Shown: positions 3,153-55,642 of the stretch, piece by piece | Numbering within the stretch: the stretch's first letter is position 1 | How the letters are laid out: each line of letters starts with the position of its first letter | Source: Centroscyllium fabricii | Taxonomy: Eukaryota | DNA: 64,000 bases | Assembly: GCA_051313645.2 (NCBI GenBank) | Contig: JBNRSN020000007.1 | Span: 247,132,001-247,196,000 of the forward strand | Direction: 5' to 3' | Translations under genes and position numbers: made by a program | The notes under the pieces: model-generated | Seen by the model: the letters and a program-made list of their open reading frames with translations, nothing else | The model's database searches: none | Told to the model about the DNA's origin: nothing

Positions 3153-4257
3153 TTTAAAGTTTTAAATGTCGTGAACCTGGAGGACTCAAAAAAGGCTGCT
3201 TTCTGATTTGCTGATCCAATTACTGCTCCAGCTTCATTTAGAGGGGGAGGAGTGTTCTGGGGGGGGGGGGGGATTGTTGGTGATGGGAGGGGTCCTTTGA
3301 ATTTTTTCTCTGTGGGGTCTCACTTTTTTTGTTGGATGGGACATCTCCATTTTTTTGCGTGAATGGTGCTTTTTTTGTGTTATGGGAATGTTTGAATTTT
3401 GAATCCATTTGAAGTTTAAATTAGGACTTGCATTTCTGCAAAATACTGCAACCCACTCGCTGGGTTTACACTAGCATCCAGTTCCCAAAGGTTAGACGTT
3501 CTCATTTTCCATACTGACCAGACTGTTGCCTCTTTGAGTAAGGATACTAATTAGAAAAGAAAGCAGTACACAACCAATTAATTACTTTTGAAGAGCGATC
3601 ATTGTTACATAGGCATAGCCAAATTCAAGTTAGTTTTCAGTTGTGGTCTTGTGCTGACTTGGAACTGGATTGAGATTGTCCAAACTAATTTTATATTGAA
3701 TCCTTATAACCAAGCTAGTGGACAGAAGAGACTTTCTACCCCATTTATGTGGGTGTATTTATATAATCCCAGATGCATTGTTGGTTCTCAAATAACTTTC
3801 CTAAAATGAAATTTAATAAAGTTTATACTTCAAATGTGGAGCAAGCACAAGACTATATTTACCTTGTTTCTCTTTCCTCCCCCAGTTATTCTGACTCTAT
3901 ATGTAGTCTGGAAATTTGCAACATGATCATTCTTTCCTCCCCAAGCATAAATAAAGGTCCTGAATTTAGACCATGAAATACTAGCTAGCAAGCGGGCATT
4001 GTGCATTCATTTGAAATTCCCTTTTACTATTTTAGAACGGGTCTTGACCAAGTTAATTTAAGCAAGTTAATGCCTCTGCTGAACTAGCATAAAGAAGAAT
4101 TTCAGACTAATGCGAGTATTTCTTGGTGTGATTTTTTTTTTTTAGGGCCAACTTCTGAAGGATTCTCCCATGTATATTTTTCTTGGTTACATAATATTAT
4201 TGACTGCAATGTTAAAGCCTAGACTAAGTATATAGGTGCTGTAAAGGATTAGTAGTA

Positions 4258-4994
4258 CAGGTTGAGCACCAGTAATCCGTTACCCAAAAAACCGGCAGCT
4301 TCGAACGTCCGGCAATAATTCCCCCGACTGCGCCGCGAATGCGCAAAATGGCCGCCGCGATTGATGCTTCGGTGACTATGCGCAGATCAAACGATGAGCG
4401 CATGCGCAGATCATTCACTGGCCCTCTGAGCCCAGCCCTGCCTGTCCGAGCCCTGCCGGCCTCTCCGAGCCCCGCCCAGCCTCTCCCGAGTCCAGCCTCT
4501 CCAAGCCCAGCCCAGCCCCGCCTTTTCGAGCCCAGCCCCACCTCTCCGAGCCCCGCCCAGCACCTTCGAGCCCAGCCCCACCTCTCCGAGTCCAGCCCCG
4601 CCCGGCCTCTCCGAGTCCAGCCCCGCCCGGCCTCTCCGAGTCCAGCCCCGCCCGGCCTCTCCGAGCCCAACCTCGCCTCTCCAAGCCCAGCCTCGCCTCT
4701 CCACGTCCCGCTCCACCTCGCCAAGCCCAGCCTCTCTGAACCAAGCCTAGCCTCACCTCTTGGAGCACAGCCTCGCGCCTCCGAGCCCAACCTCGCCGGG
4801 CCTCTCCGAGGCGATCCCGGGCCTCCCCAAACGACAAGCGCATGCGCAGACCACTCAAAATGGCCGCCAGCCTTTCGCGGTGGCCATTTTGAATGGTCTG
4901 CGCATGCGCTCACCGAAGCTTCAATCATTCGGGATTTTCACTTTCCCGGCACGGGCCTGGTCCCGCTCGTGCCGGATTAACGGTGCTCAACCTG
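4258..4994. mobile_element. Tc1/mariner (Tigger/pogo-like) MITE with internal GC-rich minisatellite
   Basis: TA|CAGGTTGAGCACC ... GGTGCTCAACCTG|TA TIRs and TA TSD. Degenerate CTCTCCGAGCCCAGCC repeats at ~4420-4810. Confidence 0.9.
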
Positions 4995-7174: not shown

Positions 7175-8433
7175 TCTCCTCTTCTTAGGCAGTCCCTTGG
7201 AATCGAGGATGACTTGCTTGCTTAAAAATGAGTTCTCAGGTGACTGATGAGTCCAATGCGGAACCTACAGTCTCTGTCGCAGGTGGGGCAGACGGTAGTT
7301 GAAGGGGTGGCTGGGTGGAGTGCTTGGGTTGATGTGCGCTCCTTCCGCTGTTTGCGCTTGGCTTCCGCTTGCTCCCGACGAAGAGACTCGGTGTTCGGCA
7401 CCTTCCTGGATGCTTCTCCTCCACTTGGTGTGGTCTAAGGCCAGGGATTCCCAGGTGTCGGTGGGGATGTTACACTTTTTCAAGGAGGCTTGGAGGGTGT
7501 CCTTGAAGCGTTTCCTCTGCCCACCTGGGGCCCTCTTGCCATGCCGGAGCTCCGAGTAGAGCGCTTGTTTTGGGAGTCTCGTATCGGGCATGCGGACAAT
7601 GTGACCCGTCCATCGGAACTGATCGAGCGTGGTCAAAGCTTCGATGCTAGGGATGTTGGCCTGAGCGAGAACACTGACGTTGGTGCGCCTATCCTGCCAA
7701 TGGATTTGCAGGATCTTGCAGAGGCAGCGTTGGTGGTACCTCTCCAGTGCTTTGAGGTGCCTGCTGTACATGGTCCATGTCTCTGAGGCATGTCTCCCAG
7801 TGGCCGAAGATCTCCTCCCAGAGTCGCAATGCGGATTCCGCCCACTAAGGGGCACAATGGACGTGATCTTCACTGCACGGCAATTATAAGAGAAATGCAG
7901 GGAACAGCACCAACCGCTGTACATGGCGCCTTTGATCTCACAAAGACCTTCGATTCAGGGCGGCACGGTGGCATAGTTGTTAGCACTGTTGCCTCACTGC
8001 GCTAGGGGCCCGAGTTCAAATCCGGCCTTGGGTGACTATCTGTGTGGAGTTTGCACATTCTCCCCGTGTCTGCGTGGGTTTCCTCCGGGTGCTCCGGTTT
8101 CCTCCCACAGTCCAAAGATGTGCGGGTTAGGTTGATTGACCATGATAAATTAACCCTTAGTGTTAGGGGGATTAAATATGTGGGGGTTATGGGGGTAGGG
8201 TGTGATTTGTGTCGGTGCAGACTCGATGGGCCGAAATGGCCTCTATCTGCACTGTAGGGATTCTATGATCCGGTCAACCGTGAGGGATTATGTAGTGTGC
8301 TCCTCAAATTCGGCTGCCCTCAAAAGTTTGTCGCCATCTTCAGCCTGCTTCATGATGACATGCAAGCCGTGATCCTGACCAACGGTTCCACCACAGACCC
8401 AATTCATGTACGAACTGGGGTCAAGCAAGGCTG
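7175..8433 (-). mobile_element. RTE-clade (BovB-like) LINE with 5' inversion
   Basis: Minus part 7175-~7790 encodes RTE RT C-terminus (ALERYHQRCL..WQDRRTN..GHIVRMPDTRLPKQ). Plus part ~7790-8433 encodes PESQCGFRP..DVIFTARQL..GVKQGC. TSD TGCACAACT(G/A)T at 7164-7174 and 8434-8444. Confidence 0.85.
7958..8269 (+). mobile_element. tRNA-derived V-SINE (HE1-like), nested in the RTE element
   Basis: GGGCGGCACGGTGGCATAGTTG A-box head, GAGTTCAAATCC B-box, V-domain GTGGAGTTTGCACATTCTCCCCGTGTCTGCGTGGGTTTCCTCCGGGTGCTCCGGTTTCCTCCCACA. Confidence 0.9.
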
Positions 8434-11400: not shown

Positions 11401-12365
11401 AAGTACCCTAGGATGTAGATTATCAGGCCCTGGGGATTTATCGGCATTCAATCCCATCAATTTCCCTACAAACACTGATTTCATTCAGTTCCTCCCTCTC
11501 ATTAGACCCTATGTTCCCTGACATCTCTGGGAGGTTATTTTTGTCCTCCTTTGTGAAGACAGAACCCAAGTATGTATTTAATTGGTCGGCCATTTCTTTG
11601 TTCCCCATTATAAATTCCCCCGATTTCTGACTGCAAGGGACCTACGCTTGACTTCACCAATCTTTTTTTCTTCACATATCTATAGAAGCTTTTACAGTCA
11701 GTTTTTATGTTCCCTGCAAGCTTTCCCCCTCTTAATTAATCCTTTTGTTTTCCTTTGCTGGATCCTAACTGCTCCCAATCCTCAGGTTTGCTGCTTTTTC
11801 TGACCAATTTATATGTGCTCTTCTTGGATCTTATGCTATCCCTAATTTCCCTTGTTAGTGACGGTTGCGCCACCTTGTTTTATTTTTATGCCAGACAAGG
11901 ATGAACAAATTCTGTAGTTCATCCATGCGATCTTTAAATGTTTGCCATTGCCTGTCCACCGCCAGCCCTTTAAGTAACATTCCCCAATCCATCCTAGCCA
12001 ACTCGTGGCTCATACCATCGTAGTTAACTTTATTTAAATCGGCATCATCAGAGCTAATATCTTTCCTTACGATTGTGTTACTCTCCTCTTTAACCAGCAA
12101 TGCTACCCCACCTCCTTTTCCTTTTTGCCTGTCCTTCCTGAATGTTGAATTCCCAGCCTTGGTCACCCTGGAGCCATGTCTTCGTAATCCCAACTATATC
12201 ATATCCATTCAGGGCGCGACTAAACCGCTTGCCCGGGGCAAGCAAAATGAGCCTTCGGGCAAGCAAAAGAAATTCGCACTTGCCCGACCGGGCAAGCGAT
12301 GTGCGGACATGACCCGAGCCTGCACAGTGGCCAGTTTCGGCAATAGCGCTGCGGGTGTGCGAGAG

Positions 12366-12790
12366 GGGGTGAAGAGGCGGACCGGCCGGCCGCGGGGTGA
12401 AGAGGCGGACCGGCCGGCCGCGGGGTGAAGAGGCGGACCGGCCGGCCGCGGGGTGAAGAGGCGGACCGGCCGGCCGCGGGGTGAAGAGGCGGACCGGCCG
12501 GCCGCGGGGTGAAGAGGCGGACCGGCCGGCCGCGGGGTGAAGAGGCGGACCGGCCGGCCGCGGGGTGAAGAGGCGGACCGGCCGGCCGCGGGGTGAAGAG
12601 GCGGACCGGCCGGCCGCGGGGTGAAGAGGCGGACCGGCCGGCCGCGGGGTGAAGAGGCGGACCGGCCGGCCGCGGGGTGAAGAGGCGGACCGGCCGGCCG
12701 CGGGGTGAAGAGGCGGACCGGCCGGCCGCGGGGTGAAGAGGCGGACCGGCCGGCCGCGGGGTGAAGAGGCGGACCGGCCGGCCGCGGGGT
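12366..12790. repeat. 28-bp GC-rich minisatellite, 15 copies
   Basis: Unit GGGGTGAAGAGGCGGACCGGCCGGCCGC; no variants seen by eye. Confidence 0.97.
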
Positions 12791-13264
12791 CACAGCCTAC
12801 AAAGCTTATTTTGGGTTATTCTGCTGTCCTGGTGTGTGTTTTTAACAATATGCTCGCCCCTCCTCTGCTGAAGCTGCAGGCTCCTGCTGGGTCCCAGATC
12901 CATAGCACCTTACCCCAGAGGTTATTCTTCAGGCTAATCAAACACAGAGTCTGATCTTGTCCCAACGTCCAGTCAAGAAGACTTGCCATCAGCTGTTATT
13001 AGATAGCAATCAGAGTTTGGCGGGGTGCGGGGGTAACTTGGTATGATTGTCACCCTCTTAGTCCATGGGGTGCTGAGGCCAATTGTAGCCCACCCTAACA
13101 CTTGCACCAGCTGAAATCAGCCAGCTCAACAGACTAGGAGTAGAACCTGGGATCATAGAAGATAGGAGCACGAGTAGGCGGGGTGAAGAAGCGGCGATGA
13201 AGAGGTGGTGAGCAGCGATGAAGAAGCGCTCTCCGTTGGTCATTTGGCCAGGCACTGCAGTCGA

Positions 13265-13383
13265 ATGGCGGGCCCCGGTTGGGGCCGGGGGTTGGCGCTG
13301 CTCTTCTGTCTGGCTGGAGCTGCTGCTGCTTGGGGAGTATGTGTCGGGGCAGTCCCGGGGTCAACGAGCGTTGAGGCTAATCG
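13265..13383 (+). pseudogene. captured first-exon-like fragment encoding a signal-peptide-like sequence (gene unidentified)
   Basis: ATGG start, MAGPGWGRGLALLFCLAGAAAAWGVCVGAVPGSTSVEANR, ending at consensus donor CG|GTGAGT (13384). GC-rich and inside the TIR element. Confidence 0.55.
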
Positions 13384-13593
13384 GTGAGTGCCGGGCCGGG
13401 CACACTATTATAGTACTTATAATACAAAAATATAGTACAAAAATAACAGATGGCCAGCCAATAAATTACCTGAATTAAATAGTTCTGATGTTTAAACCTG
13501 TGGTTGCAGTTTATTACATCATCAGAATCCTGCATGTCAAATACTGTCATATCTTCCTGCCATCCATCATTACCCAATATTTGTTTTTACAAA

Positions 13594-13960
13594 GTCATAG
13601 TCATAGCGTTTTACAGCACAGAAAGAGGCCCTTCTGCCCATCGCATCCGCACCGGCCATCAAACCCTTTCTATTCTAATCCCATTTTCCAGCATTTGGTC
13701 CGTAGCCTTGTATGCTATGGCATTTCAAGTGCTCATCCAAATGCTTCTTGAATGTTGAGGGTTCCTGCCTCTACCACCCTTTCAGGCAGCGAGTTCCAGA
13801 TTCCAACCACCCTCTGGGTGAAAAAGTTCCTCCTCAAATCCCCCCCTAAACTTCCTGCCTTTTACCTTGAAACTATGCCCCCTGGTTATTGATCCCCTCT
13901 ACTAAGGGAAAAAGTTCCTTTCTATCTATGCCCCTCATAATTTTGTACACCTCAATCAGA
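13594..13960 (-). mobile_element. CR1 3'-end fragment inside the cargo element
   Basis: Highly similar to the CR1 3' end at ~30603-30980 (CAGCACAGAAAGAGGCCCTT..CATTTCAAGTGCTCATC). Confidence 0.85.
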
Positions 13961-16900
13961 TCCAATAGTTATAGCAATACATATTCTTCAGTATATCTCT
14001 CTCCAAACTGTTTTTTAACCTATACCAGATCAGTGATGGGCAAGATTGATGGCAGACCTAAAAGGTACACTAACTACAATCACAATCTATGGCTTTATAT
14101 TGAAGCATTTTAATAAAAATGTAAAATCTTTATTTATTTCTTTAAAAATTTCGGGCAAGTGAAATTTGTGTTCGGGCAAGTGTTTTAGAAATCCACTTGC
14201 CCGACTGGGCATGTGGGGAAAAAAATAATTTGTAGCGCCCTGTCCGTTTACATCTATTTGCGCAGCTAATTCATCCACCTTATTACGAATGCTCCTCACA
14301 TTAAGACACAAAGCCTTCAGAGTTGTTTTTTTTAAACACTTAATCCTTTCAGAATTATTATTTACTGTGGCCCTGTTTGATTTACACCCTTGATTTCTCT
14401 ACCTTCCACTTTTGCTTTTCTCCTTCCTGTCTTTTGCTTCTATCCTTGCCCCCCTTTCCTCTGTCTCCCTGCCCACTGCTATTTTAGTTTAAACCCTCCC
14501 GAACAGTATTAGCAAACACTCCCCCTAGGACATCGGTCTCAATCCTGCCCAGCTGCATACCGTCCAGTTTGTACTGGTCCCACCTCCCCCAGAACCGGTT
14601 CCAATGTCCCAGGATTTTGAATCCCTCTCGCACCATTCCTTCTACTCTGACTAGCACGTGGCACTGGTAGCAATCCTGAGATTGCTACCATTGAGGTCCT
14701 ATTTTTTAATTTACCTCCTAACTCCCTATATTCAGCTTTTAGGACCTCAATCTGGTTTTTTACCTATATCGTTGGTACCTATGTACACTATGACAACTGG
14801 CTGTTCACCCTTCCCCTTCAGAATGCCCTGCAGCCGCTCCAAGATATCTTTGATCCTTGCACCAGGGAGGCAACATACCATCCTGGAGTCTCGTCTGCGG
14901 CCGCAGAAACGCCTATCCCCCTTAAAATAGAATCCCCCATCACTATAGCTCTCCCGCTTTTTCCTCCCGTCCTGTGCAGCAGAACCACCCATGGTGCCAG
15001 GAAGTTGGCTGCTGCTACCTTCCCCCAATAATCCATCTCCCCCAATAATTTCCAAAGCGGTATATGTTTGAGAGGGGGATGGCCGCAGGGGAACCCTGCA
15101 CTACTTGCCTGCGCCCACTACTCTGCCTGGCGGTCACCCATTCCCTTCCTGCTTGTGCAGCCTTTACCCACGTTGTGACCAACTCCCTAAACATGCTATC
15201 CACGACTTCCTCAGCATCGCGAATGCTCCAGTATGTATCCATTCGCAGCTCCAGCGTCTCAATGCGGTCTGCTAGTAGCTGCAGCTGGATACACCCTCCC
15301 GCACGCATGGTCGTCCGGGACACCGGAAGTGTCCCTGATTTCGCACATAGTGCAGGAGGAGCTTGCTACAGGGCCGAGCTGTGCGGCCATGACTTACCCT
15401 TTAATTAATTCAAATTAAATTAAATCAAACCAATACCACAAATTACACAAAAAATAAATGATATACTCAAGGGCCCTTGATTGCTAGCACTCCCCACGAC
15501 ACAACAGAGACCTTAGAAAGTATAAATCACAAAAGTTAAGTTTGTACACACCCATAGGGACATCGGAAATGCCGGTTTTAGACACGTGAAGCGCATGTGC
15601 TGAAAACCGGCATTTCGGGTCTGTCAAGAATGCTCCTGCCCTGGGGAAGAGCCTTTGCGGGTGGAGAGTTCCGCTTTTTGCAGAACTGCCGCCTGCTGAA
15701 AACCCTTGGAAGGCCTGCTTTTACCAGTATAAGAGTTGGAAAAAAGTTTTTTTTTTTTTAATTAGTTTTCGCTCATTTATAATTGAAAAAAAGTTTTTAA
15801 AAGGGGAAGTTTATTTTTAGCCCCGTAAAAACTTTAACTTTTTTTATTAAAAATTAAATTTTGTTTAATGTAATTTTAACTCATTTTCAAAATGTGATGG
15901 TTTTAAAAAAATGTATTTAGTGTTTTTTGGGGGTGATCGCCATTCATATATTTGACAGGTTTGTCAAAAGTATGAAGGGAGATTCCCTTCTCCTATTGGC
16001 TGGCCTGGCCCACGTGACCCCAGGGACGCTGCGAACTTCATGCGCCCCTGGGATACGTGGGCTCTGCGTATTTCGACTGGAGCGGCCCAGGAGCCCTCGG
16101 ATAAATTAGTCGATTTTTTTCCCGATAGGAGGCATCCACGCGCAGGAAGCCTCCTATCGGAAATTACGGGCCATTATTTAAAGTGGCAAGTCAAGGAGTT
16201 TCTTCGCCCCAAACCATTGAAAGTGTTTGTTTTTGCGTTTACTGCCCTTAATATAGGCAGACGGTAACGCAGATGTAAATGTTCTTCCTGATTTACAGGT
16301 ATTTACCTTTTTTTGTATTTTTTTTAAACTATTGATCTTAAATGTGTGTGTTTATACAGCACAACAAATGCAAGATTTAATTTAGGTCCATGCATATAGT
16401 TGGGTGTTGGAAGGTCTAAATAAGCAAGGGACATGAGGTTAGAAAATGTACTAAAGTGTAACTACAGCAGCAAAGTAGCTCCTTGCCACATAATTGGATA
16501 TTTGCACTCATTTGGGGAGATTTTCATGTCCCCATGAGGCGGGGTTTTCGGCGGCTCGGCCGGCAAAATACCGCAACCAGGGGGTTGCGATCCCCGCCGC
16601 TTTATCATTTTCCTCCCGCCCCAAAACCTTCTGCCGGCCGGCGGGGATGGATTGTCACCTCGTTAAGGGCCCTTAATTGGCATGTTTAATGCCATTTTAA
16701 GGGCCCTCAGCCATTTTGAGCTGTTTCCCGCCCTAACCCCGTCACCTTAAACCCCGCTGGGTCATTACATTCTCCTTCAAGGTGTGAAGGACCTGCTGCC
16801 AAATGCTTGGCATGCCTCCAGCACCTTTGAGGAATAAGTTACTCCGTTCTGTCTGCACCAGTTGTGAGCAAAAACTGAGAAATCTCCGCTCTGTACATTT

Positions 16901-17273
16901 GCTCACAGCCGGTGCAACTGTCAAGGATTCGGAGCCCGCCCACCTGTCAGTCACCAGCACTTGACCTTTCCCATTGGTTCCACTCTTGCGCTATTTGTCC
17001 CTCTCAGTCCTCTGTGAACCTTAATTCTCCTCTGTTTCATCCTGGTGCCCATCCCCCTGCCAAATTAGTTTAAACCCTTTCTCTCTTCCCTCCCTGGCCC
17101 CCTCCCCCCACCATCTAGCCCTATATTTTCCTTTTTATGTTCTTTGCCATCCTCACTGCATATTTCTCTAACGTTGACCTCTTGTCGACCTTTACCCTTC
17201 CTCCCTTACCCCACCATTGGTGGCAGAGCTTTCAGCTACCTGAATATTACTGTCTACAATTTACTTTCGCTTA

Positions 17274-17308
<35 letters not shown>

Positions 17309-17456
17309 CTTCAAAATCCATCGCTTTTTGACCAATCTTTTGCTAACTCCTCCTAATCTCTCCTTTTCTAGCTCTCTCTCTGTTTTCAGGAGCCTTTCTG
17401 TAAATCACCTTGAAGCATTTTTGTACTTACAGGTGGCAGTACAGTAATATACAGTC

Positions 17457-20017
17457 AGGAGAGAGTGGCCCTAGGAGTCATCAACCTTGATTCCGGACCC
17501 CATGAAGTCTCGTGGCTTCAGGTCAAACATGGACAAGGAAACCTCCTGCTGATTACCACCTACTGCCCTTCCTCAGCTGATGAATCAGTACTCTTCCATG
17601 TTGAACACCACTTGGAAGAAACACTCCGGGTAGCAAGGGCACAGAATGTACTCTGGGTGGGGGACTTTAATGTCCATCACCAAGAGTGGCTCGGTAGCAC
17701 CACTACTGATCGAGCTGGCCGAGTCCTGAAAGACATAGCTGCCAGACTGGGCCTCTGCGGCAGGTGGTGAGAGAACCAACACTAGGGGGAAAAACCTACT
17801 TGACCTCGTCCTCACCAATCTACCTGTCGCAGATGCATCTGTCCGTGACAGCATTGGTAGCAGTGACCACCGCACAGTCGTTGTGGAGATGAAGACCCGT
17901 CTTCACACTGAGGACACCTTCCATCGTGTTGTGTGGCACTACCACCGTACTAAATGGGATAGATTCAGAACAGATCTAGCAGCTCAAAACTGAGCATCTA
18001 TGAGGCGCTGTGGGCCAGCAGCAGTATCAGAATTGTACTCCACCATAATCTGTAACCTCGTGGCTTGGCATATCCCTCACTCTACCATTGCCAGGGGTGG
18101 ACCAACCCTGGTTCAATGAGGAGTGCAGAAGAGCATACCAAGAGCAGCACCAGGCGGACCTAATAATGAGGTGCCAACCTGGGAAAGCTTCAACACAGGA
18201 CTACATGCATGCTAAACTGTGAAAGCAGCATGTTATAGACAGAACTAAGCGATCCCACAATCAACAGATCAGATCAAAGCACTGCAGTCCTGCCACATCC
18301 AGTCATTACTGGTGGTGGACCATTAAACAGCTAACAAGAAGAGGAGGATCCATGAATATACCCATCCTCCGTGATGTCTGAGCCCAACACGAGTGCAAAA
18401 GACAAGGCGTTTACAACCATCTTCAGCCAGAAGTGCCTGGTGGATGATCCATATCCGCCTCCTCCTGACGTCCCCACCATTGCACAAGCCAGTCCTCAGC
18501 CAATTCGATTCACTCCACGTGATATCAAGAAACGTCTGAGCGCACTGGATGCAGCAAAGGCTATGGGCCCCCGACAACATCCAGGCTGTCGTGCTGAAGA
18601 CTTGCACTCCAGAACTAGCCGCACCTCTAGCCAAGCTGTTCCAGTGCAGCTACAACACTGGCTGACAATGTGGAAAAACTGCCCAGGTATGTCCTGTCCA
18701 CAAAAAGCAGGACAAATCCAATCCAGCAAATTACCACCCCATCAGTCCACTCTCAATCATCAGCAAAGTGATGGAAGCTGTTGTCGACAGTGCTATCAAG
18801 CAGCACTTACTCACTAATAACCTGCTCACTGATGTGCAGTTTGGTTTCCGCCAGGACCACTTGGCTCCTACCTCATTATAGTCTTGGTCCAAACATGGAC
18901 AAAAGAGCTGAATTCCAGAGGTGAGGTGACCGTGACTGCTCTTGACATCAAGGCAGCATTTGACCGAGTGTGGCATTAAGGAGCCCTAGTAAAACTGAAG
19001 TGAATGGGGATTGGGGAAAACTGGCTGGAGTCATATACAAAAGAAGATGGTTGCGGTTGTTGGAGGTCAATCATTTCAGCTCCAGGCCATGGCTGCAGAC
19101 ATTCCTGGCCCAACCATCTTCAGATGCTTCATCAATGACCTTCCCTCCATCATAAGGTCAGAAGTGGGGATGTTTGCTGATGATTGCACAGTTTTCAGTT
19201 CCATTCGCAACTCCTCAGATAATGACGCAGTCCATGCCCGCATGCAGCAAGACCTGGACAAGATTCAGGCCTGAGCTGATGAGTGGCAAGTAACATTTGC
19301 GCCACACAAGTGCCAGGCAATGACTATCTCCAACAAGAGAGAGTCTAACCACCGCCCCATGACACTCGACGGCATTACTATCATTGAATCCCCCAGCATC
19401 AACATCCTGGGGGGTCACCATTGACCAGAAACTTAACTAGAGCAGCCACATAAATACTGTGGCTACAAGAGCAGGCCAGAGGCTGGGTATTCTGCAATGA
19501 GTGTCTCCTTTCCTGACTCCCCAAAGCCTTTCCACCATCTGCAAGGCACAAGTAAAGAGTGTATTGGAATGCTCTGTACTTGCCTGGATGAGTGCAGTTC
19601 CAGCAACACTCAAGAAGCTCGACACCATCCAGGACAAAGCAGCCCGCTTGATCGGAACCCCATCCACCACCTTTAAATATTCATTTCCTGCACCACTAGC
19701 GCACCGTGGCTACAGTGTGTACCATCTACAAGATGCACTGCAGCAACTCGCCAAGGCTTTTTTGACAGCACTTCCAAAACCTGCGACCTCTACCACCTAG
19801 AAGGACAAGGGCAGCAGGTGCCTGGGAAAACAATCACCTGCAAGTTCCCCTCGAAGTTACATACCATCCTGACTTGGAAATATATTGCCGTTCCTCCTTC
19901 ATCGCTGGGTCAAAATCTTGGAACCCCTCCCTAACAGTACTGTGGGACTACCTTCACCGCAAGGGCTGCAGCGGTTCAAGAAGGCAGATCACATCCCAGA
20001 AACGAATATAAAAAAAC
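17457..20017 (+). mobile_element. degenerate CR1-group LINE ORF2 (subfamily distinct from the other CR1 copies)
   Basis: EN motif VLWVGDFNVHHQEWLG; RT motifs FINDLP..MFADDCTVF and KKLDTIQDKAARLI; multiple stops. Confidence 0.8.
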
Positions 20018-21443
20018 CAATGCAAGTTGTATTATTGGTTCCTTTTCACTATTTTCTTTCCTAATATGTACTGCTTCACATTTCTCTACATAGGTCTGTC
20101 ATCTATGTTCGTACTCCATTAATCTTTCTTTCTTCCTATATCTTGCATTTTTCCTTAGAGTTTGCCATGTCTAATTTGGTATCAATAGATATGAACATAA
20201 TTCCTCTTATCTTTTGTCCAAATCATTTTTCTAAATGAAAAGCAGAAGATTCCCCATCAGAGATGGTGTATTGCAGAATTGTGTAACACAGTGTGGGATA
20301 TCAATCTCTTTTCAACAAAGTAAATTCTTGATCTGAGGTAGAGAAAATTGGAGGGCAAGTTGATTCATGCTGCTTTTGCATAGTTGGCAGCGTGTGGAAG
20401 CCTAGCAATGGGTTGCAGCAGTGCCCTTGACATTGGTGAATGACACACATGCAACAAAGAAATGCTGTTTTAGTTAATGGTGATTGATTTCACATTGTCC
20501 ATGCTGCCTTCCAGGAGCGGAAAGCCAAAATGTAAGTCCCTGTACTAGGCATTTGGTTCACGAATGAGTACTAGCATTATCAGCGCCATTTGTGCATAAC
20601 ATGCCTTCGAAGAACATTGTGGCCTTAGCTGCGGTTATTCTTGATGCAGGTGTGTGATATATCCATCCACACCCAACACCTTTTTGTTTCTGAAAATTGG
20701 ATACATTTGCATTTGTTAATGTGACTAACTGGTATATGATTCTCTTATTAAAGATACATCAGCATTTTATTGAGGTGCAGTGGTCCAACATGTTAGCACG
20801 AGCCAATTTTACCCCTTCTATGTTTCATTCCCCTCATTCTTCTAAACTCCAGCAGGGCGCGATAAAACCGCTTGCCCGGGGCAAGCAAAATGAGCCGAAG
20901 GGCAAGCAAAAGAAAATCGCACTTGCTCAACCGGGCAAGTGCAAAGTATTTCACATTGGCGACGGATACGGGTGGGTGGATCCCGCCCTGGAGGCGGGTG
21001 CGGAGTGGGGGGGGGGGCGTGCGGCTCGGCGGGGATTGGAGGAGGCGGCGTGTCAATCGGGAGGAGCAGCAATCAAGTTAGGTGGAGCGGGCTGGTAGAA
21101 CGTGGCAAGAGTGGGTCGGTAATAATAGCAGAAAGTGCTGGGGGGGTGGGGGGCTCGGCGGGCCGGGCACCACCGGTGGAGAGAGGTGTGGAGTTGACGT
21201 TTCGGGTTGGGACCCTTTGAGGGGCGCTGGGATTCCTGCTCCTCCAGGCAGCTGGGAGTGTCCGAGCGCCGGGTTCAATCCCTTTGTGAGGTTCAGGTCC
21301 CCGCTGAAGAGTTTTTTGTGTGTGAGGTTACATAAACCCATTGAGAGAATGCGGTTTAAAAGTTAATCTTGATTGGGGGGGGGTCCCAACCCAAAACACA
21401 ACTCTGTGTTTCTCTCCACCGATGCAGCAGCGGGTGGGCTCGC

Positions 21444-21536
21444 CATGATGTGAATGTCCTTGCTGAGTCTCCGCTGCGGTTTATGCCTCCTGATGACGGC
21501 CTGCAAGCTGCTCCGGGGAACCGCGCGCTTCACCAT
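21444..21536 (-). pseudogene. CENPW: captured CENP-W-like first coding exon
   Basis: GCCCGCCATGG Kozak, MVKRAVPRSSLQAVIRRHKPQRRLSKDIHIM resembles the vertebrate CENP-W N-terminus (chicken-type MRRTVPRGTLRKIIKKHKPHLRL, from memory). Similarity stops at a phase-0 donor-like GCGAGC. Confidence 0.7.
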
Positions 21537-22363
21537 GGCGGGCGCTCGGGACCCGCCCATTTAAAACTCTGCGCCAGCCACCGCGCCCTGAAGTCACAGA
21601 CACCCCGCCCCGTCGTGCAGGAGTCGCGCAGAGTGAGTGTTGATGTTCAGTACATGATTAATAATTACTCGCAGCAAAATTGGCTTAACTGTTTGAAGGT
21701 TCTAAATCGTCTCCCTGCTTAGTGTTTTTAATGTTTTGTATAACCATTTCAACATTTTTTTTTTAAAAACAACTTACCTTTCAATAAACAAATTGTTCTT
21801 GCAACTTTTAACGAAATTAATCAATGTAAAAATCTATAAGAATGTGGGACTCGCTTGTAGTTAAACATAGAAACATAGAAACATAGAAGATAGGAGCAGG
21901 AGTAGGCCATTTGGCCCTTCGAGCCTTGATGCAAATAGCATTGATGCAGTTAATGGGAAGCTAGGTAAGTATGCAAGGGAGAAAGGAAAAGAAGGTTATG
22001 TTGATCGGATGAGATGAAAAAGAGTTGGGAGGAAATAACAACAGAAAATGCTGGAAAAACTCAGCAGTTCAGGCATATCGATAAAGAGTCCCGACCCGAA
22101 ACATTGACTCCTACTTCTCTCTTACGGATGTTGCCTGAACTGCTGAGTTTTTCCAGCATTTTCTGTCGTTATTTCGGATTTCCAGCATCTGCCGTATTTT
22201 GCTATCGTACAAGAGTGGGTCGGTGCCGTCGACCCGCTGAGGGGGAGAGAAAAAACCGGAGCGGCTTCTGAGAAGAAAAAAAACCAACAACAGCTCGGTC
22301 TTTATTCTTTCGATCAATTATAAAATCTTTATATTTTCCCCCTCTGAGGAGTAATTATAAAGA

Positions 22364-22605
22364 ATGGTGGGGGAAATGGAAGTGAGGGAGAAGCCGAGAC
22401 CCAGTCCCGAGGTGGGGGGGGGGTGAATGGGAGTGAAGGAGAAGCCGAGACCCAGTCCCGAGGGAGGGGGGTGGAAATGGGAGTGAAGGAGAAGCCGAGA
22501 CCCGGTCCCGACTATTTGATGCAGCTGATGAATGACAAGAAGCTGATGTCGAGTCTGCCCAACTTTTGCGGCATCTTCACCACCTGGAGCGGCTGCTGGA
22601 CGAAG
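22364..22605 (+). pseudogene. QKI: captured, disrupted QKI (Quaking) exon 1
   Basis: [37 protein letters not shown] then, after a 1-nt frameshift, HLERLLDE and a phase-1 donor G|GTAGG (22606). The 5' part is triplicated, and the frame from ATG 22364 hits TGA. Confidence 0.9.
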
Positions 22606-23212
22606 GTAGGCGGGGAGAGAGAGTGAGGGAGCCCGCGGCCTGCGGAAGCTTCACAAAGTTTGGAAGAGACAAACGAAGAAATGGAGTGAATGCTTGAGGA
22701 AATAGATTTTTGAAAAGACTTTTAAAGGTGGAATAGGATGGAGAGGCCAATAGTGTTAGGGCGAGAGGGGCAGAAACCGGGCCAATGCAACTAAAGGCAC
22801 AATCACAATCTATGGCTTTATATTGAAGCATTTTAATAAAAATGTAAAATCTTTATTTAAAAATATCGGGCAAGTGAAATTTGTGTTCGGGCAAGTGTTT
22901 TAGAAATCCACTTGCCCAGAATTTTTTTTTTTTGTGGCACCCTGCTCTAGGGAATATCGGCCCAGTCTACTCAATTTCTCCTCCTAAGACAATCCCCCCA
23001 TCCCAGGAATTCTTCCTCCCCTTTACAAAAAAGTTTGTTCTTTTTATGAAGTTTATGAAATAATGGATTATTTTAATTCAATCTACTGCAATAGCAAACG
23101 AATCTACACCCTTTAGATGACATTATTACATATAATATACAGCACAGGAACAGGCCATTCAGCCCAACCAGTCCATGCTGGCATTTATGCTCCACTCAAG
23201 CCTTCTCCCTCA

Positions 23213-23598
23213 TAGAAACTAGGAACAGGAGTAGGCCATTCGGCCCTTCGAGCCTGCTCCGCCATTCAATGAGATCATGGCTGATCATCCAAACCCTGTA
23301 TCCCGCCCCTGCCCTCTCCCCATATCCCTCTCAAGCCTGCATCGACACATATCCCACCCTATCCCCGTAACCCCACATATTCAATCCCCCTAACACTAAT
23401 GGTCAATTTATCATGGCCAATCAACCTAACTCGCACATCTTTGGACTGTGGGAGGAAACCGGAGCACCCGGAGGAAACCCACGCAGACACGGGGAGAATG
23501 TGCAAACTCCACACAGATAGTACCCGAGGCTGGATTTGAACCCGGGTCTCCAGTGCTGTGAGACAACAGTGCTAACCACTGTGCCACCGTGCCGCCCA
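23213..23598 (-). mobile_element. HE1-like V-SINE with CR1-type 3' tail
   Basis: Reverse complement of the 7958 head and V-domain, joined to the AATGGCGGAGCAGGCTCGAAGGGCCGAATGGCCTACTCCTG tail. 5'-truncated copies at 24225-24474 (+) and 33409-33620 (-). Confidence 0.85.
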
Positions 23599-24498
23599 TA
23601 TGCTTATCTAGCTTCCTGTAAAATGCCTCAACTACTCCCTTATTATCTGCCATAGTTTGCATGTTCACATTTGAAAGTTTGACTCTTTGATACCAATTGG
23701 ATTTTTCCAACACCTACTGGTGCTGCTCATCCCACCATTGTATAATTTTGTAAAAATTCTGTTATCAAACGAAAGCTGAATGAGGCACTGGTTGTTAATG
23801 TTGCTGCATTTATAACACCTATGTTTTGTATCTAGTGAAAAGGTGAGAGTTGGTTTGTGGCTTTGGCCTGCCACTGAACTCTGACAAGGACCAAAGATAT
23901 TGGCCGGAATTTTGCCGGCCCTCAGGGCGGGTTTGGAAGTGGGACCTCTGGCAAAATTGCAAAGATTGACCAGGCAGGAAACCGCTGTCAACTCCCCTCC
24001 AATCAATCTTCCCAAGTGTCGGGTCCCCGATTTACACATGGACCCAACACCTAGCAGCGGGAAGAGGATTATAGCCACTTAACTGCCTTTTAACAACCTT
24101 TAACAGACAGTTAACAGGCTCTTTTTCAATTTTGATACTTCTACTTCAGGCTTCCCGATGTCTGGACACCACGCCAGGTAAGTGTGGTGTGTTGTGAGTC
24201 TGCTGTAATGTTTCTACATTGATCCAAAGATGTGCGGGTTAGGTTGATTGGCCATGATAAATTGACCCTTAATGTTAGGGGGATTTAATATGTGGGGTTA
24301 CGGGGATAGGGTGGGATATATGTGTCAGTGCAGGCTCGATAGGGATCGAGGGATATGGGGAGAGGGCAGGGACGGGGTACTGAGTTTGGATGATCAGTCA
24401 TGATCTCATTGAATGGCGGAGCAGGCTCGAAGGGCCGAATGGCCTACTCCTGCTCCTATCTTCTATGTTTCTATAACAGCTGCAGAAATGGTGTAAAG

Positions 24499-24822
24499 CA
24501 GCGGTCCCCAACCTTTTTTGTTCCGCGGACCATTTTGAGCTAGACAATTTTTTCACGGACCGGGGAGGGGGGGTGCTCGGGGCGGGTGGGGGGGGAATCA
24601 AGCGTTAAACGAGGCACAGACGGAAGCGGTCCAAAAAAAGCGTCGTAATTTAAACGAGGCACAGACGAAAGCAGTCCAAAAAAAGCGTTGTAATTTAAAC
24701 GAGGCACAGACGGAAGCGGTCAAAAAAAAATTTATTGACTCAATAAAATAAAAATTAAAACGCTTTCTTCATTCCTTCCGCGGCCCGGTACCGGTCCGCG
24801 GCCCGGCGGTTGGGGACCCCTG
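24499..24822. mobile_element. hAT-Charlie (MER1-like) MITE
   Basis: TIRs CAGCGGTCCCCAACC / GGTTGGGGACCCCTG; perfect 8-bp TSD GTGTAAAG; internal ~45-bp unit x3 (24604-24730). Confidence 0.9.
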
Positions 24823-30602: not shown

Positions 30603-32449
30603 CATAGATTCATAGAGTTATACAGCACAGAAAGAGGCCCTTCGGCCCATCGCGTCCGCGCCAACCATCAAGCCCTGTCTATTCTAATCCCATTTTCCAG
30701 CATTTGGTCCGTAGCTTTGTATGCTATGGCATTTCAAGTGCTCATCTAATTGCTTCTTGAATGTTGTGAGGGTTCCCGCCTCCACCACCCTTTCAGGCAG
30801 TGAGTTCCAGATTCCAACCACCCTCTGGGTGAAAACGTTCTTCCTCAAATCCCCTCTAAACCTCCCGCCCCTTACCTTGAAACGATGTCCCCTTGTTATA
30901 GACCCCTCTACTAAGGTAAAACGTTCCTTTCTATCTACCCTATCTATGCCCCTCATAATTTTGTACACCTCAATCAGGTCCCCCCTCAGCCTTCTCTGCT
31001 CCAAGGAAAACAACCCTAGCCTGTCCAGTCTTTCTTCATAGCTGAAGCGCTCCAGCCCAGGTAATATCCTGGTGAATCTCCTCTGCACCCTCTCCAAAGC
31101 AATCACATCCTTCCTATAGTGTAGCGACCAGAACTGCACACAGTACTCCAGCTGTGGCCATACCAGCATTTTGTACAGCTCCATCATAACCTCACTGCTC
31201 TTATATTCTGTGCCTCAACTAATGAAGGCAAGTACAGGTTGAAAACCATTAATCAGGCACGGGCGGGACCAGGACCACGTCGGTATAGTGAAAAAGCCGG
31301 AAGAATGAAGCCATCCAGTGCGCATGCGTACACCATTCAAAATTGCCGTGCGCATGCGCAGAACATTGGAAATGGTCGTCGCGAAATTTTGAATGATCTA
31401 CGCATGCGCCGCCGAACGGCGAGCACATGCGCAGATCATGCAATATGGCCGCCGCGAAGTTCTGAATGATCTGTGCATGCGTTCGGCGCATGCGCAGATC
31501 ATTCGCCGAAGCATCAATCCGGCCATTTTGCGCATGCGCAAGGCAGTCAGGGCAATTTATGCCGGACGACTGAAGTTGCCGGCTTTTCGGTTACCGGATT
31601 AACGGTCTTCAACCTGTATCCCATATGCCTTTTTAACCACCTGTCCTGCTGCCTTCAGGAATCTATGTACATGCACACCAAGGTCCCTCTCATCCTGTCT
31701 TTCCTAGGGTCTTACCATTCATTGTGTATTCCCTTGCCTTGTTAGTCCTTCCAAAATGCATCACCTCACACTTTTCAGGGTTAAATTCCATTTGCCACTG
31801 TTTCGCCCATCTGACCAACCCATCTATATCGTCCTGCAGACTGAGGCTTCCCTCTTCGCTATTTACCACCCCACCAATTTTCGTGTCATCAGCGAACTTA
31901 CTGATCATACCTTTTACATTCATATCCAAATCATTAGTGTGGACTACAAACAGCAAGGGACCCAGCACTGATCCCTGCGGGACCCCACTGGACTTCCAGT
32001 CACAAAAACAACCTTTGACCATCACCCTCTGCCTTCTGCCACTGAGCCAGTTTTGTATCCAGTGTGCCAAGGTGCCCTGGATCCCATGGGCTCTTACCTT
32101 CTTGACCAGTCTCCTATGCGGGACTTTATCAAAAGGTTTACTGAAATCCATGTATACCACATCCACTGCACTACCCTCATCCACACACCTAGTCACCCCC
32201 TCGAAAAGTTCTAATCAAATTGGTCAGACATGATCTTCCCTTGACAAAGCCATGCTGATTATCCTTGATTAATCCTCGCCTCTCCAAGTGGAGACTTATT
32301 CTGTCCCTCAGAATTTTTTCCAATAATTTCCCTACCACTGATGTTATCACTGGCCTGTAATTCCCTGGTTTATCCCTACTACCCTTCTTGAATAATGGTA
32401 CTACATTAGCTGTTCTCCAGTCCTCTGGCACATCCCCTGTTGCCAGAGA
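30603..32449 (-). mobile_element. 5'-truncated CR1 nested in L2
   Basis: RT ORFs 30684-31187, 31690-32196 and 32189-32431; GCTCCT on both sides. Confidence 0.9.
31235..31616. mobile_element. Tc1/mariner MITE (same family as 4258) nested in CR1
   Basis: TA|CAGGTTGAAAACC ... GGTCTTCAACCTG|TA. Confidence 0.9.
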
Positions 32450-40720: not shown

Positions 40721-42819
40721 CTCTTAACAAGTCTATGTAAAGAAATGTTTCCTAGTATCTAGTCATCATGCCGCAGATGCGGCCTAATCAGGAACACTGA
40801 ACAACCTCAGCATGACCTCTGGAGATTTGCACTCAACTGATTTTGGAAATTTACTCCCAACATGATAAGGAAGGTCAATCTTGGCTCATTAATCCCAACA
40901 AACCTTGCATTCCCTCTATCACATCATCTAACTGTATCTTGAATTAATCTAAGGTTTTGCCCTAGCTGAAAGACTATTCCAAGTCACTGACATCTGACTT
41001 AAATTGTTCTTTCACTAGTTTTAGCCCATACCCCTCTTGGATTACCTTGAAACCTTATTTATACCAACTTCTTTCACTGTTAAAGCGCCCCATTTTCTCT
41101 AGTCTTTCTTTGTAATTCATTGTTTGACATCAGTAAGTCCAGTGGCTGTTCTCTACACTGTCTCCATGGCTTGAATTTTTGTCTCCCTTGTGTCTTGCTA
41201 ACTAAAACTTAATTCGAGATGTGGTCTGATCAGGGTATTGTACAGTTTTCACATGACACTTTCTGTCTTGTACTGCAGTGATCTAGTGATATATTGAAAC
41301 TGTACGAGGAATCTGGTGGCCTAGATATTGCCGACCGCCAGCTTGAATCACTTGATACTGCTCCTCGAGCCCAATGGGAAGAGTCAACCTCGCAGTTGGA
41401 TTTTAGTCGCTCAAGTCAGAAAAGGAGAAGCCTCGTTGATTGTCTAGGCGCTGGTCAACATCCACCAGCACAGACTTGATCCATCTGCTATTGTGCTCCC
41501 ATTTGAGCTCATTCACCATTCACGAAGTTGGGGGATACTCGACTGCGCCTCCTGTCAGGCATATTGTGCCCTACTCCCCTCCCATGGTTAGCAGTGCTCT
41601 GCAAAATAGCTCTTCCACATCTTTGTCGTTCAGATGCAGTAGCAACAATGGTGACTAGATTTGACCTAAAACCCTTTAAAAGTAAGAACTTGTAAGCATT
41701 ACTATATAATAGTCTTTACATGGAAACTAGACCATTGCTCTTTTTGGTGGTTTACAGGATTCTTGAATCTTTTGTATGGGAGTTCTTCACAATGAGGTGG
41801 GTGATCTGTATACGACCTACTCCTACAGACACCTTGCAAATATTCTATGGCTCTGCAAGTATTGACACATGACGTATCGTCAATAAGACAAAGACGAGTA
41901 GTTACCTTAACTAGAGGCTTTTAATCACTTTACAATGGAGCTACTCTCCAGTCGAACATTGAGTACAGAATGAATGGGGGCAGGTCAGACCTCACCTATA
42001 AGGCGCTCACCTGAGGGGAGGAGTTAGAGGTGTGGCTGACCTGACCTCGCGACAGTGTCGTTATACAAAACTACATACAATGCACCCAGCCACTATACAT
42101 GCTGGTCTGTAGTGTGCTCAACTATATACACTGGTAATCATGATTACCACATTCACCCCTTCTTTGAAAATTAAGTCCGGCGGGGTGAATGGACAGAACC
42201 TGTTATTGCAAGGAAAAGAATTTTTTTTGTATAGTATGAGTCCAGCTCAACAGTTCACAATGAGTCTCTCCGGCGGTTGTGTCTGCCTTGAGGACCGCCG
42301 GGGTTCTGGTAGCGGCGCTGGTGCCGGTTGTGGCGGCGGGACCGGGTCCTCCGGCCGCTGTGCCTGCAGTGTGGCGTCTGGTTCTGGGTCCTCAGCTGGT
42401 AGTGTCGAGGGCCCCGGTGTGTGCGTGTGCCTAGGCCAGTATCCGGTGGGTTGTGGTTGATGTGTAGGCCAGTGGCCGGTAGGTGGTGGCTGGTCGGGCT
42501 GAGGCTCGACCAGGGGCTCTGCTGTGGTGCTCCCGGCGGGCGCTAGGTCCCTGATGGAAACTGTGTCCTCGCGTCCGTCCGGGAACTGCACGTATGCGTA
42601 CTGCGGGTTGGCGTGCAGCAGCTGCACCTTTTCCACCAGGGGGTCGGTCTTATGGCTGACGTATCGTCAATAATCTAATAAAACTAAAGACGCGTAGTTA
42701 CCTTAACTAAAGGCTATTATTAGCTTTACAAAGGAGCTATGCTCCGGTCGAACATCAGGGACAGAATGAATGGGGGCAGGTCAGACCCCACCTATAAGGC
42801 ACTCACCTGAGGGGAGGAG

Positions 42820-44928
42820 TTAGAGGTGTGGCTGACCTGACCCCGCGACAGTGTCGCAATACAAAGCTGTGTATAGTGCACCCAGCCGCGACACATGCTG
42901 GTTAATATTGTGCAACAATATTACGGTGGTAATAGGCATTATATAACGGTTACCATATTCACCCCTTCTTTGAAAATTAAGTCCGGCGGGGTGAATGGGC
43001 AGAGCAGTGGAGGGGAGGGGGCCTTTGAAGTCCACGCTTAGACGTTCAAAGGGGCGGGTGGCCTTAATGAGGTGTGGCGTGTCTGGCCTGTAAAATTGGG
43101 GTTTGCACTCAGCGCAAACAGGGCACTCTCGGGTCATATCCTTGATCTCCGAGATGGGGAGGCTACGGGATTTAACGAAATGGGCAAGTCTGGTGATACC
43201 CGGGTGGCAGAGGCGATCGTGGAGTTCCTTCAGCCGGTCTAACTGGGCACTGGCGCACATTCCCCTGGACAGTGCATCCGGGGGTTCATTGAGTTTGCCT
43301 GGTCGGTAAATAATGTCGTACTCGTAAGTCGAGAGCTCGATCCGCCACCGCAGGATCTTATCATTCTTGATTTTACCCTTTTGTTTATTGTTAAACATAA
43401 ACGCGACCGACCGTTGGTCGGTGAGCAGGGTAAAACGCTTACCGGCCAGGTAATGACGCCAGTAGCGCACGGCCTCCACGATGGCCTGGGCCTCCTTTTC
43501 CACTGCAGAGTGGCGAGTTTCGGGTCCCTGTAGGGTGCGGGAGAAAAACGCTACGGGCCTGCCTGCCTGATTCAGGGTGGCGGCAAGGGCAAAGTCCAAA
43601 GCGTCACTCTCCACCTGGAAAGGGATGGACTCATCAACGGCGTGCATGGTCGCCTTGATAATATCTTCCTTGATCCGGGCGAACGCCGTGTGGGCTTCTA
43701 TCGACAGGGGGAAGATGGTGGCCTTGAGGAGCGGTCTGGCCTTATCCGCGAACTGGAGAACCCATTGCACGTAATAAGAGAAAAATCCCAGACATCTCTT
43801 CAGGGCTTTGGGGTTGTGAGGAAGGGGCAGTTCCTGTAAGGGACACATACGCTGTGGGTCGGGGCCAAAGACCCCGTTTTCCACCACGTATCCGAGGATG
43901 GCGAGCCGATCTGTACTAAAGACGCACTTATCTTTATTGTACGTGAGATCGAGCCGTTTCGCCGTGTGGAGAAATTTGGCCAGGTTGGCATCGTGGTCCT
44001 GCTGGTCATGGCCGCAGATGGTCACGTTGTCCAGGTAGGGGAAAGTAGCCTGCAACCCGTTCTGGTCAACCATGCGGTCCATCTCCCTCTGGAATACCGA
44101 CACTCCGTTGGTCACGCCGAAGGGGACCCGGAGGAAGTGGTAGAGCCGACCGTTCGCCTCGAAGGCGGTGTACGGGCGATCGGCTTTCCGGATCGGGAGC
44201 TGGTGATACGCCGACTTAAGGTCGATTGTGGAGAACACCTTGTACTGGGCGATCTGGTTAACCATTTCCGAGATGCGGGGAAGGGGGTAGGCGTCGAGCC
44301 CGGTGTAGCGGTTAATGGTCTGGCTGTAGTCGATCACCATTTGCTGTTTCTCGCCAGTCTTAACCACTACGACCTGGGCCCACCAGGGGCTGGTGCTGGC
44401 TTCAATTATCCCCTCCTTCAGCATACGCCCGACCTCCGACCTGATAAATGTCCGATCCCCTGCACTGTAACGCCGACTCTTCGTAACAATGGGTTTGCAG
44501 TTTGGGTCGAGGTTGGCGAACAGCGAGGGGGGGTCGACTTTCAGGGTGGAAAGGCCGCAAGTCGGGCTCCGCTTTAAGAAGGGATTGTCCCGGCTACTGA
44601 CGGTGAGGGGGGCCAGGGTCCCGCCGAACTCCATTGTCACGCTCTTCAGGTGGCACTGGAAATCCAGTCCCAGTAAGACTGGGGCGCACAACTGCTGGAG
44701 TATGTACAATTTAAAGTTACGGTACACGCAGTGCCTGACTGTGAGCGTGACGGAGCAGTAGCCGGTGACGTCCGCCGTGTGGGACTTTGAAGCAAGGGAG
44801 ATTTGGTAGTGCGTGGGCAGGGTCTCCAGTCCGTAGCGCCGCACTGTGTCAGGGTGAATGAAGCTCTCTGTGCTTCCGGTGTCGAACAGGCAGTTGGTGA
44901 TATGGCCGTTAACTTTAATCCCCATCAT
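42820..44928 (-). CDS. pol: Gypsy Pol (protease, RT, RNase H, integrase N-terminus), running into the internal LTR
   Basis: LFDTGS protease, YLDNV RT motif, RNase H (VESDA, EKEAQA, TDQRS), HHCC; integrase breaks after SVDFKGPLPS (~43005). IN C-terminus resumes at 42247-42656. Confidence 0.9.
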   Translation of the reverse strand: MMGIKVNGHITNCLFDTGSTESFIHPDTVRRYGLETLPTHYQISLASKSHTADVTGYCSVTLTVRHCVYRNFKLYILQQLCAPVLLGLDFQCHLKSVTMEFGGTLAPLTVSSRDNPFLKRSPTCGLSTLKVDPPSLFANLDPNCKPIVTKSRRYSAGDRTFIRSEVGRMLKEGIIEASTSPWWAQVVVVKTGEKQQMVIDYSQTINRYTGLDAYPLPRISEMVNQIAQYKVFSTIDLKSAYHQLPIRKADRPYTAFEANGRLYHFLRVPFGVTNGVSVFQREMDRMVDQNGLQATFPYLDNVTICGHDQQDHDANLAKFLHTAKRLDLTYNKDKCVFSTDRLAILGYVVENGVFGPDPQRMCPLQELPLPHNPKALKRCLGFFSYYVQWVLQFADKARPLLKATIFPLSIEAHTAFARIKEDIIKATMHAVDESIPFQVESDALDFALAATLNQAGRPVAFFSRTLQGPETRHSAVEKEAQAIVEAVRYWRHYLAGKRFTLLTDQRSVAFMFNNKQKGKIKNDKILRWRIELSTYEYDIIYRPGKLNEPPDALSRGMCASAQLDRLKELHDRLCHPGITRLAHFVKSRSLPISEIKDMTRECPVCAECKPQFYRPDTPHLIKATRPFERLSVDFKGPLPSTALPIHPAGLNFQRRGEYGNRYIMPITTVILLHNINQHVSRLGALYTALYCDTVAGSGQPHL

Positions 44929-45000
44929 GGAATTTGATAGGGTGTGCGGCTTAGCCTGGTCGACCGTGGCTGAGGCCGAAGTGTGTGTGGGGGCCCTCCG

Positions 45001-55480: not shown

Positions 55481-55642
55481 TATTTATTTCTGCCAAGTTC
55501 TGGCAGAAGTTCCATTTTGTATTTCTTTTTGTCTAATTTTTCTAGCTAGATTAATGGGTAGCAGCAGACCCAGCTGCATCTGAAAAGAGAAATGACAGGT
55601 GCACACATTAACCTTTTTTCGAACTGGAATGTATTTGCAGTA

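Follow-up and report, generated by a model that had tools for sequence, protein, structure and literature searches.

The locus analysed here raises the question of whether a stretch resembling the first exon of the quaking gene (QKI) belongs to the gene itself or is a copy carried by a transposon, as an initial annotation made from the letters alone had proposed. The fragment lies in a 64-kb window, the whole stretch of DNA that was analysed (64,000 nucleotides of the Centroscyllium fabricii assembly); positions refer to this window, and features are on the + strand unless stated otherwise, the two transposons E1 and E2 and the nested insert being given without strand. The window is filled with repeats (43% self-repeated), including remnants of CR1-type and LTR retroelements. 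A screen of its 392 non-repeat frames of at least 45 amino acids, from which short exons could escape, brought up no exon of a host gene. Weak Pfam matches below the cut-off were obtained for zf-C2H2 (7225-7434) and CD59 (23668-24078), and the two Rfam matches over 12000-23300, both below the gathering score, were taken as chance hairpins. Read evidence came from the short-read contigs of four of the 22 listed runs, namely X1 and X2 (organism A), X11 (organism D) and X6 (organism B).

Several other elements were observed in the window. A small hAT-type MITE at 24499-24822, whose 8-bp duplication (GTGTAAAG) is perfect, contains a 45-bp tandem, and an LTR retrotransposon at about 41857-46510, with terminal repeats 96% identical, encodes protease, RT and RNase H in a frame of 726 aa and has a shorter relative in the opposite orientation at 60388-62200. 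Related short palindromic elements occur at about 4220-4990, 31240-31610, 48340-48760, 55400-56050 and 56700-57090, several of which contain tandem repeats (20-32 bp) that are rich in GC.

The peptide encoded at 22477-22581, initially described as coming from the QUA1 region, matched Quaking in PDB (E 6.4e-16) and STAR_dimer in Pfam (E 1.5e-9, above the cut-off), and in tblastn 33 of 36 residues were identical to shark quaking-A (92% over 36 aa), all three results agreeing with that reading. The closest proteins were shark and skate quaking-A, which points to a cartilaginous fish as the source; intact versions of shark quaking-A are known from other species. Past 22580 the quaking-A alignment resumed in another frame with HLERLLDE, indicating a 1-nt deletion at 22580/22581, within the QUA1-coding part of quaking-A exon 1 (22477..22605). 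The frameshift that had been called thus holds, but the base missing is a G, as seen in sibling copies, and not the C that had been expected. Exon 1 of quaking covers the QUA1 domain only in part (up to the frameshift, positions 1-26 of the 53 in the profile), so that a dominant-negative peptide made by the E2 copy would be unlikely. Further upstream, the original start codon at 22364 opens a frame of 20 codons (22364..22426) that ends at TGA 22424-22426, which is the in-frame stop reported beforehand, and it is preceded by a putative quaking 5' UTR (22225..22363) with a CpG o/e of 1.12. From the ATG at 22477 a 49-codon frame remains in this copy, which reaches the donor in a phase other than that of quaking.

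The 3' limit of the exon was examined with 156 quaking proteins, 155 of which had the LERLLD motif (106 long, 49 short). After this motif the long proteins continued with E-E-I, as expected for spliced products, in 102/106 cases, while the short genomic ORFs had a G in 45/49, corresponding to read-through of G|GT; GT 22606 was therefore assigned as the exon-1 donor, and the annotated phase-1 donor coincides with the end of quaking exon 1. The donor and the high-copy sequence on its intron side extend over 22606..22798 (summed depth of 56,000-73,000 in X1). About 40 bp of intron-like sequence had been described; donor and intron side are indeed present, but the stretch carried along with the exon exceeds 40 bp, because the element-specific stretch past the donor stays high-copy to about 22800. 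No other quaking exon was found by tblastn in the 64-kb window, where the remaining matches all had E values of at least 0.03 and were scattered, and no KH domain was detected in the 392 non-repeat frames of at least 45 amino acids. The lack of a QKI exon 2 downstream is in this way corroborated; taken alone, it is weak evidence for a captured copy.

The beginning of the coding region is expanded as a head-to-tail triplication (22366..22511) of a 45-bp unit, equivalent to 15 codons, that begins at the G of the ATG. The three units measure 45, 51 and 50 bp (22366-22410, 22411-22461 and 22462-22511), and each of them starts with GGTGGGGG. A unit of ~38 bp repeated three times with G-rich spacers had been reported; the sequence is triplicated, but as a tandem of 45, 51 and 50 bp in which the 'G-rich spacers' are expanded versions of the unit starts. 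In the second and third units (51 and 50 bp) the G-runs are longer, and the two units have one change in common, which suggests that the tandem expansion took two steps. Depth at the first tandem junction was 523 in X1, 1,622 in X2, 15.5 in X6 and 0 in X11, and contigs with other G-run lengths across this junction were at about 3 times single-copy depth, indicating that the tandem form is a minority lineage of copies.

The parent gene was approached through two residues, R (KPRP) and T (IFT), which occurred together in 37/37 cartilaginous-fish quaking-A-type proteins and in 0/68 others, a count that classified 105 of the 156 quaking proteins and had no verified shark ortholog of tetrapod QKI among them. 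The paralog qkia is found in fishes and was lost in tetrapods, according to excerpts of PMC4699748 and PMC11457510. This distribution assigns the cargo to the quaking-A type and makes qkia, rather than the ortholog of human QKI, its likely, not proven, parent.

The fragment is enclosed by element E2 (20853..22944), a 2,092-bp non-autonomous TIR DNA transposon composed of a 988-bp core and a nested insert that makes up about half of it. Its ends, CAGGGCGC/CAGGGTGC, form 8-bp TIRs with 7/8 bases inverted, and they contain seven GGGCAAG motifs in either orientation as subterminal repeats. The left terminal region (20853..20939), with the GGGCAAG repeats, was 91% identical over 87 bp to positions 12210-12296 of the sibling element E1, and the right terminal region (22799..22944), also with subterminal repeats, was 93% identical over 127 bp to E1 positions 14076-14202. 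E2 is inserted in a CR1 remnant and is flanked by the TSD copies CTCCAG (20847..20852) and CTCTAG (22945..22950), alike in 5/6 bases; a length of 6 bp gave the best score for 3/3 references. In the empty-site test, removal of E2 plus 6 bp restored a gap-free CR1 in 4/6 junction-spanning matches. An 8-bp TSD was rejected, as removing 0 or 8 bp leaves gaps in the CR1 host. The probability that a 5/6 flank likeness arises by chance at both E1 and E2 is 2.7e-5. There is no transposase inside E2, nor any transposase domain in the 392 non-repeat frames of at least 45 amino acids in the 64-kb window. On the length of its TSD and the shape of its termini, E2 is likely of the hAT6 kind, a matter of likeness and not of membership.

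Inside the left end, a GC- and CpG-rich segment (20940..21105; GC 0.66, CpG o/e 1.07 vs 0.58 for the window) is contiguous with position 22210 in copies that have no insert, and it is possibly the captured promoter or 5' leader of quaking. The nested insert of 1,089 bp (21121..22209) has inverted arms, which belong to a common repeat, and contains a CENP-W-like exon as well as a 3' fragment of CR1/SINE type. It is bordered by a perfect 15-bp direct repeat (21106..21120 and 22210..22224), taken as the TSD of the insert; the pair are the sole occurrences in the window (chance about 0.002). The empty-site joint 21096-22210, with the 1,104-bp nested insertion missing, was found in sibling copies of 4/4 runs, at depths of 238.6 (X1), 384.2 (X2), 2.5 (X11) and 5.6 (X6). 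The insert is likely of retro-type, with a conceivable Penelope-like origin. Its inverted arms are a common palindromic repeat that was also observed near 2000 and 53450.

The CENP-W-like frame, on the - strand (21444..21536), would be a first coding exon of 31 codons from the ATG followed by a donor-like site of the GC form, a weak assignment. CENP-W was its sole Pfam match (E 0.015, below the cut-off), the top four PDB matches were also CENP-W (best E 0.0023, weak), Atlas gave histone-fold matches at 0.90 and a CENP-W cluster at 0.79, and two larger searches yielded no match. The exon region (21440-21565, - strand) was observed to be more abundant than the quaking piece. Depth at 21483 was 277,200 in 84 contigs of X1 and 662,010 in 101 contigs of X2, so that a counted contig has on average some 500 times the single-copy level; just outside, depth falls to a few hundred. 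Both majority differences within the frame (21483 and 21506) are silent, and this exon may form the centre of an amplified family distinct from that of E2.

Element E1 (12210..14242, 2,033 bp) also sits in a CR1 remnant; its ends are as in E2, with TIRs alike in 8/8 bases, and its interior is unrelated. Its flanks, TCCATT/TCCGTT, form a 5/6 near-duplication, for which the empty-site test fits 6, 7 and 8 bp alike. The interior is a GC-rich cargo differing from that of E2, and it includes a signal-peptide-like frame of 40 codons (13265..13389) with a GTGAGT donor at 13384 and a CpG o/e of 0.84, which had no match in Pfam or in further database searches. Within E1, at 12366-12790 and 13178-13400, 15 identical 28-bp tandem units were observed, matching 16/17 bases in the leader of its exon-like cargo; the GC-rich cargo is tandemly expanded in both E1 and E2.

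The number of copies was approached through contig depth. Unique flanks had depths of 6.4-7.4 in X1 and 13.8-16 in X2, and at position 22554 of the exon the values were 19,447 and 39,779, respectively. Mean depth per counted contig at the exon was 65 (X1) and 59 (X2) times single copy, the depth sum divided by 31, the assumed maximum overlap with 31-letter words, was 99 (X1) and 93 (X2) times, and the plain sum of about 3,000 times is a ceiling. Summed contig depth is not a copy number, and some differences in X1 and X2 were left uncounted. These figures set a floor for the quaking exon of about 60-100 times the single-copy depth, with a ceiling of about 3,000. A single contig over the 3' end of the exon had 21 times the single-copy depth. 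Depth was high across the whole E2 core, both ends included, and unbroken from the exon to the right end.

Sibling copies were present in three organisms (A, B and D). Contigs identical to the assembly at single-copy depth covered 20500-20880 (X1 and X2), 22922-23163 (X2) and 21274-21456 (X1), indicating that the E2 locus is real in organism A, with the reservation that the identical junction contigs reach 28 and 23 letters past the junctions, below the 31-letter bridging rule, and that one run may be the source sample. A contig of X6 (organism B) aligned from exactly 20853 with another flank, revealing an independent insertion. High depth, sibling variants and this one other left junction were thus seen, a full sibling with its own TSD not being among the contig pieces listed; in other copies no contig piece spans from TIR to exon, the linkage consisting of overlapping pieces and the 21096-22210 joint.

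Within the exon, the listed sibling pieces differed from the E2 copy at 6/132 to 15/147 letters (4.5-10%), mostly by transitions, and among the 33 contig pieces listed (268,593 more being unlisted) none had zero differences over 22364-22605. In-frame siblings, with the extra G behind 22580, accounted for 29% (X1), 22% (X2), 68% (X11) and 45% (X6) of depth at that position, so that the G-less state is likely common to many copies rather than an error. Joints from 22255/57/64 to 22584-94 revealed derivatives without about 328 bp, and the stretches 22255-22277 and 22582-22604, which both mark the deletion joints, resemble each other with a score reached by 3/2000 shuffles. Contigs of X11, guessed to be RNA, cross the donor into the intron, which says nothing on expression. 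Scans for the sibling-copy pattern gave 0 hits in metagenome, viral contigs and prokaryote genomes, where little shark DNA is expected.

These results make it quite probable that the quaking exon-1 piece is carried as cargo by a cut-and-paste transposon, non-autonomous and likely hAT6 in kind, which likely captured it once at the DNA level and then spread, E2 being one decayed copy. A retrocopy is disfavoured because the match ends at the exon-1 donor and no exon 2 is joined to it. The initial proposal of a DNA-level captured copy, distinct from the real locus, is likewise backed by the donor with its intron-side sequence, the TIRs, the 6-bp TSD in the CR1 remnant and a depth far above single copy. 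Capture between the element ends would have taken in the CpG-rich leader together with exon 1 and the first part of intron 1, probably through template switching while DNA was repaired or replicated, for which models are outlined in passages of PMC8277862. The unit would then have been mobilised in trans by a transposase from elsewhere, reaching a copy number between about a hundred and a few thousand. Derivatives would have arisen by a 328-bp deletion between the two similar 23-bp stretches, by loss of one G in many copies and, in a minority lineage, by tandem expansion of the 45-bp unit in two steps. The E2 copy would have landed in the CR1 remnant, and later been entered by the younger 1.1-kb insert, likely of retro-type, with its 15-bp duplication.

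It is scarcely credible that the fragment represents the genuine first exon of quaking, followed by a very long intron, and that its lesions are assembly errors. A long first intron could place exon 2 beyond 41 kb, the lesions border G-runs, and the stop and the deletion of the E2 copy itself are known from the assembly alone; but the exon lies between TIRs flanked by a TSD, all within a CR1 remnant, it stands 60-fold or more above single copy and differs by 4.5-10% from sibling contigs, and both the tandem junction and the G-less state are present in short-read contigs. Very little weight is also given to multiplication of the exon by another route (a satellite, a segmental duplication or a different element), its presence in E2 being limited to this copy and due to gap filling. 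The joint that connects the left part (21096) to the quaking leader (22210), found in 4/4 runs at about 28-37 times single copy in X2 and X1, and the unbroken high depth from the exon to the right end run against this route, even though depth is uneven along the element, no contig spans from TIR to exon and, in excerpts of PMC8277862, most animal Pack-TIRs are explained by gap filling.

Unlikely, too, is a portable promoter-first-exon cassette that is partly functional, some copies giving rise to putative transcripts spliced from the quaking donor into neighbours or to small RNAs acting on quaking-A. A CpG o/e of about 1.1 is kept upstream, the donor is intact, and in-frame siblings represent the 29%, 22%, 68% and 45% of depth given above for X1, X2, X11 and X6; there are also precedents, as 30% or more of Pack-TIRs are transcribed as chimeras in the excerpts of PMC8277862, and a bat Helitron with NUBPL exon 1 is fused to an SGSM3 transcript in those of PMC4224331. 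In the E2 copy, however, the frame is broken by a stop and a frameshift, and a 1.1-kb insert separates the exon from the GC-rich segment; the 392 frames yielded no recognisable host exon, and many siblings are without most of the exon. The chimeric or antisense transcripts suggested initially are hypothetical. If exon 1 is instead the cargo of a transposon that spread it, most copies, E2 included, are likely neutral passengers in decay, with function most likely none.

A broader proposal, which we regard as doubtful, is that cartilaginous fishes have their own Pack-MULE-like system, in which a hAT6-type family would repeatedly take CpG-island first exons (quaking-A in E2, a signal-peptide gene in E1 and a CENP-W-like exon via the nested element) and seed promoter-exon-donor cassettes by the hundreds to thousands, a part of them perhaps initiating chimeric transcripts or contributing to the control of the parents by small RNAs. 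Repeated capture of first exons would rest on the E1 and CENP-W-like leads, weaker than the quaking case. The likely parent, qkia, has a role in muscle development (excerpts of PMC11457510), and with hundreds of look-alikes of quaking exon 1, errors can enter the mapping of reads, gene models, primer design and the calling of methylation; the copies also offer a neutral clock, of use for dating and for the relationships among sharks.

Among known systems, Helitrons are rolling-circle elements without TIRs or TSDs and with TC...CTRR ends, Pack-MULEs are plant Mutator-like elements with long TIRs and TSDs of about 9 bp, and hAT elements have short TIRs and subterminal repeats. A Helitron identity was rejected for E2, which has TIRs and a TSD, and so was a Pack-MULE identity, given the 8-bp TIR, the 6-bp TSD and the vertebrate host; long TIRs and a 9-10-bp TSD are the Pack-MULE features in excerpts of PMC8277862. 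The hAT families with 6-bp TSDs are termed hAT6 in excerpts of PMC12730594, and E2 is hAT6-like in its 6-bp TSD, its short TIRs starting with CAG and its subterminal repeats. IS3EU elements also have 6-bp TSDs, but with TAYGG ends according to the same excerpts, and this identity was discarded because E2 has no TAYGG ends.

The features of Pack-TIRs are found in E2, with TIR termini at both ends, a 6-bp TSD round the whole unit, a host-derived interior (criterion of 100-5000 bp) and DNA-level capture. The animal Pack-TIRs in excerpts of PMC8277862 resemble it in being non-autonomous TIR elements, mostly hAT, with a short host fragment; in the frog, hAT-N8_XT carries a 291-bp piece of the CAPSL 5' UTR at three places with distinct TSDs. 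The same excerpts (Tan et al. 2021) count four multicopy cases among 100 reference genomes of animals and 0 in the elephant shark, and 'QKI' had 0 occurrences in the 12 supplements of that paper (PMC8277862). Its pipeline, as excerpted, needs a unique best parental match, so that a family such as that of E2 would likely be missed. No earlier report of the E2 family was found in the open-licence literature, a scope outside which Repbase and Dfam lie, and the family may already be deposited there as an unnamed hAT consensus.

The bat Helitrons in excerpts of PMC4224331, among them HelibatN3 with about a thousand copies, are like E2 in the amplification of a first exon together with its promoter, its 5' UTR and some of the intron that follows, in the bias of captures to gene 5' ends and in later nested insertions, while the rice Pack-MULEs in excerpts of PMC5861414 are like E1 and E2 in combining one set of TIR ends with different GC-rich gene fragments. 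Capture of the Pack-TIR type is known; the copy number here is far above that of the published animal cut-and-paste Pack-TIRs, which are nearly all single copy, the E2 family having about a hundred to thousands of copies in three organisms against three copies in the frog example (excerpts of PMC8277862). Mass amplification of first exons in vertebrates has been described for bat Helitrons, and a hAT-type family doing so in cartilaginous fishes would, if true, extend the plant Pack-TE pattern to vertebrates and make it testable whether a 5' CpG-island cargo aids the spread of an element.
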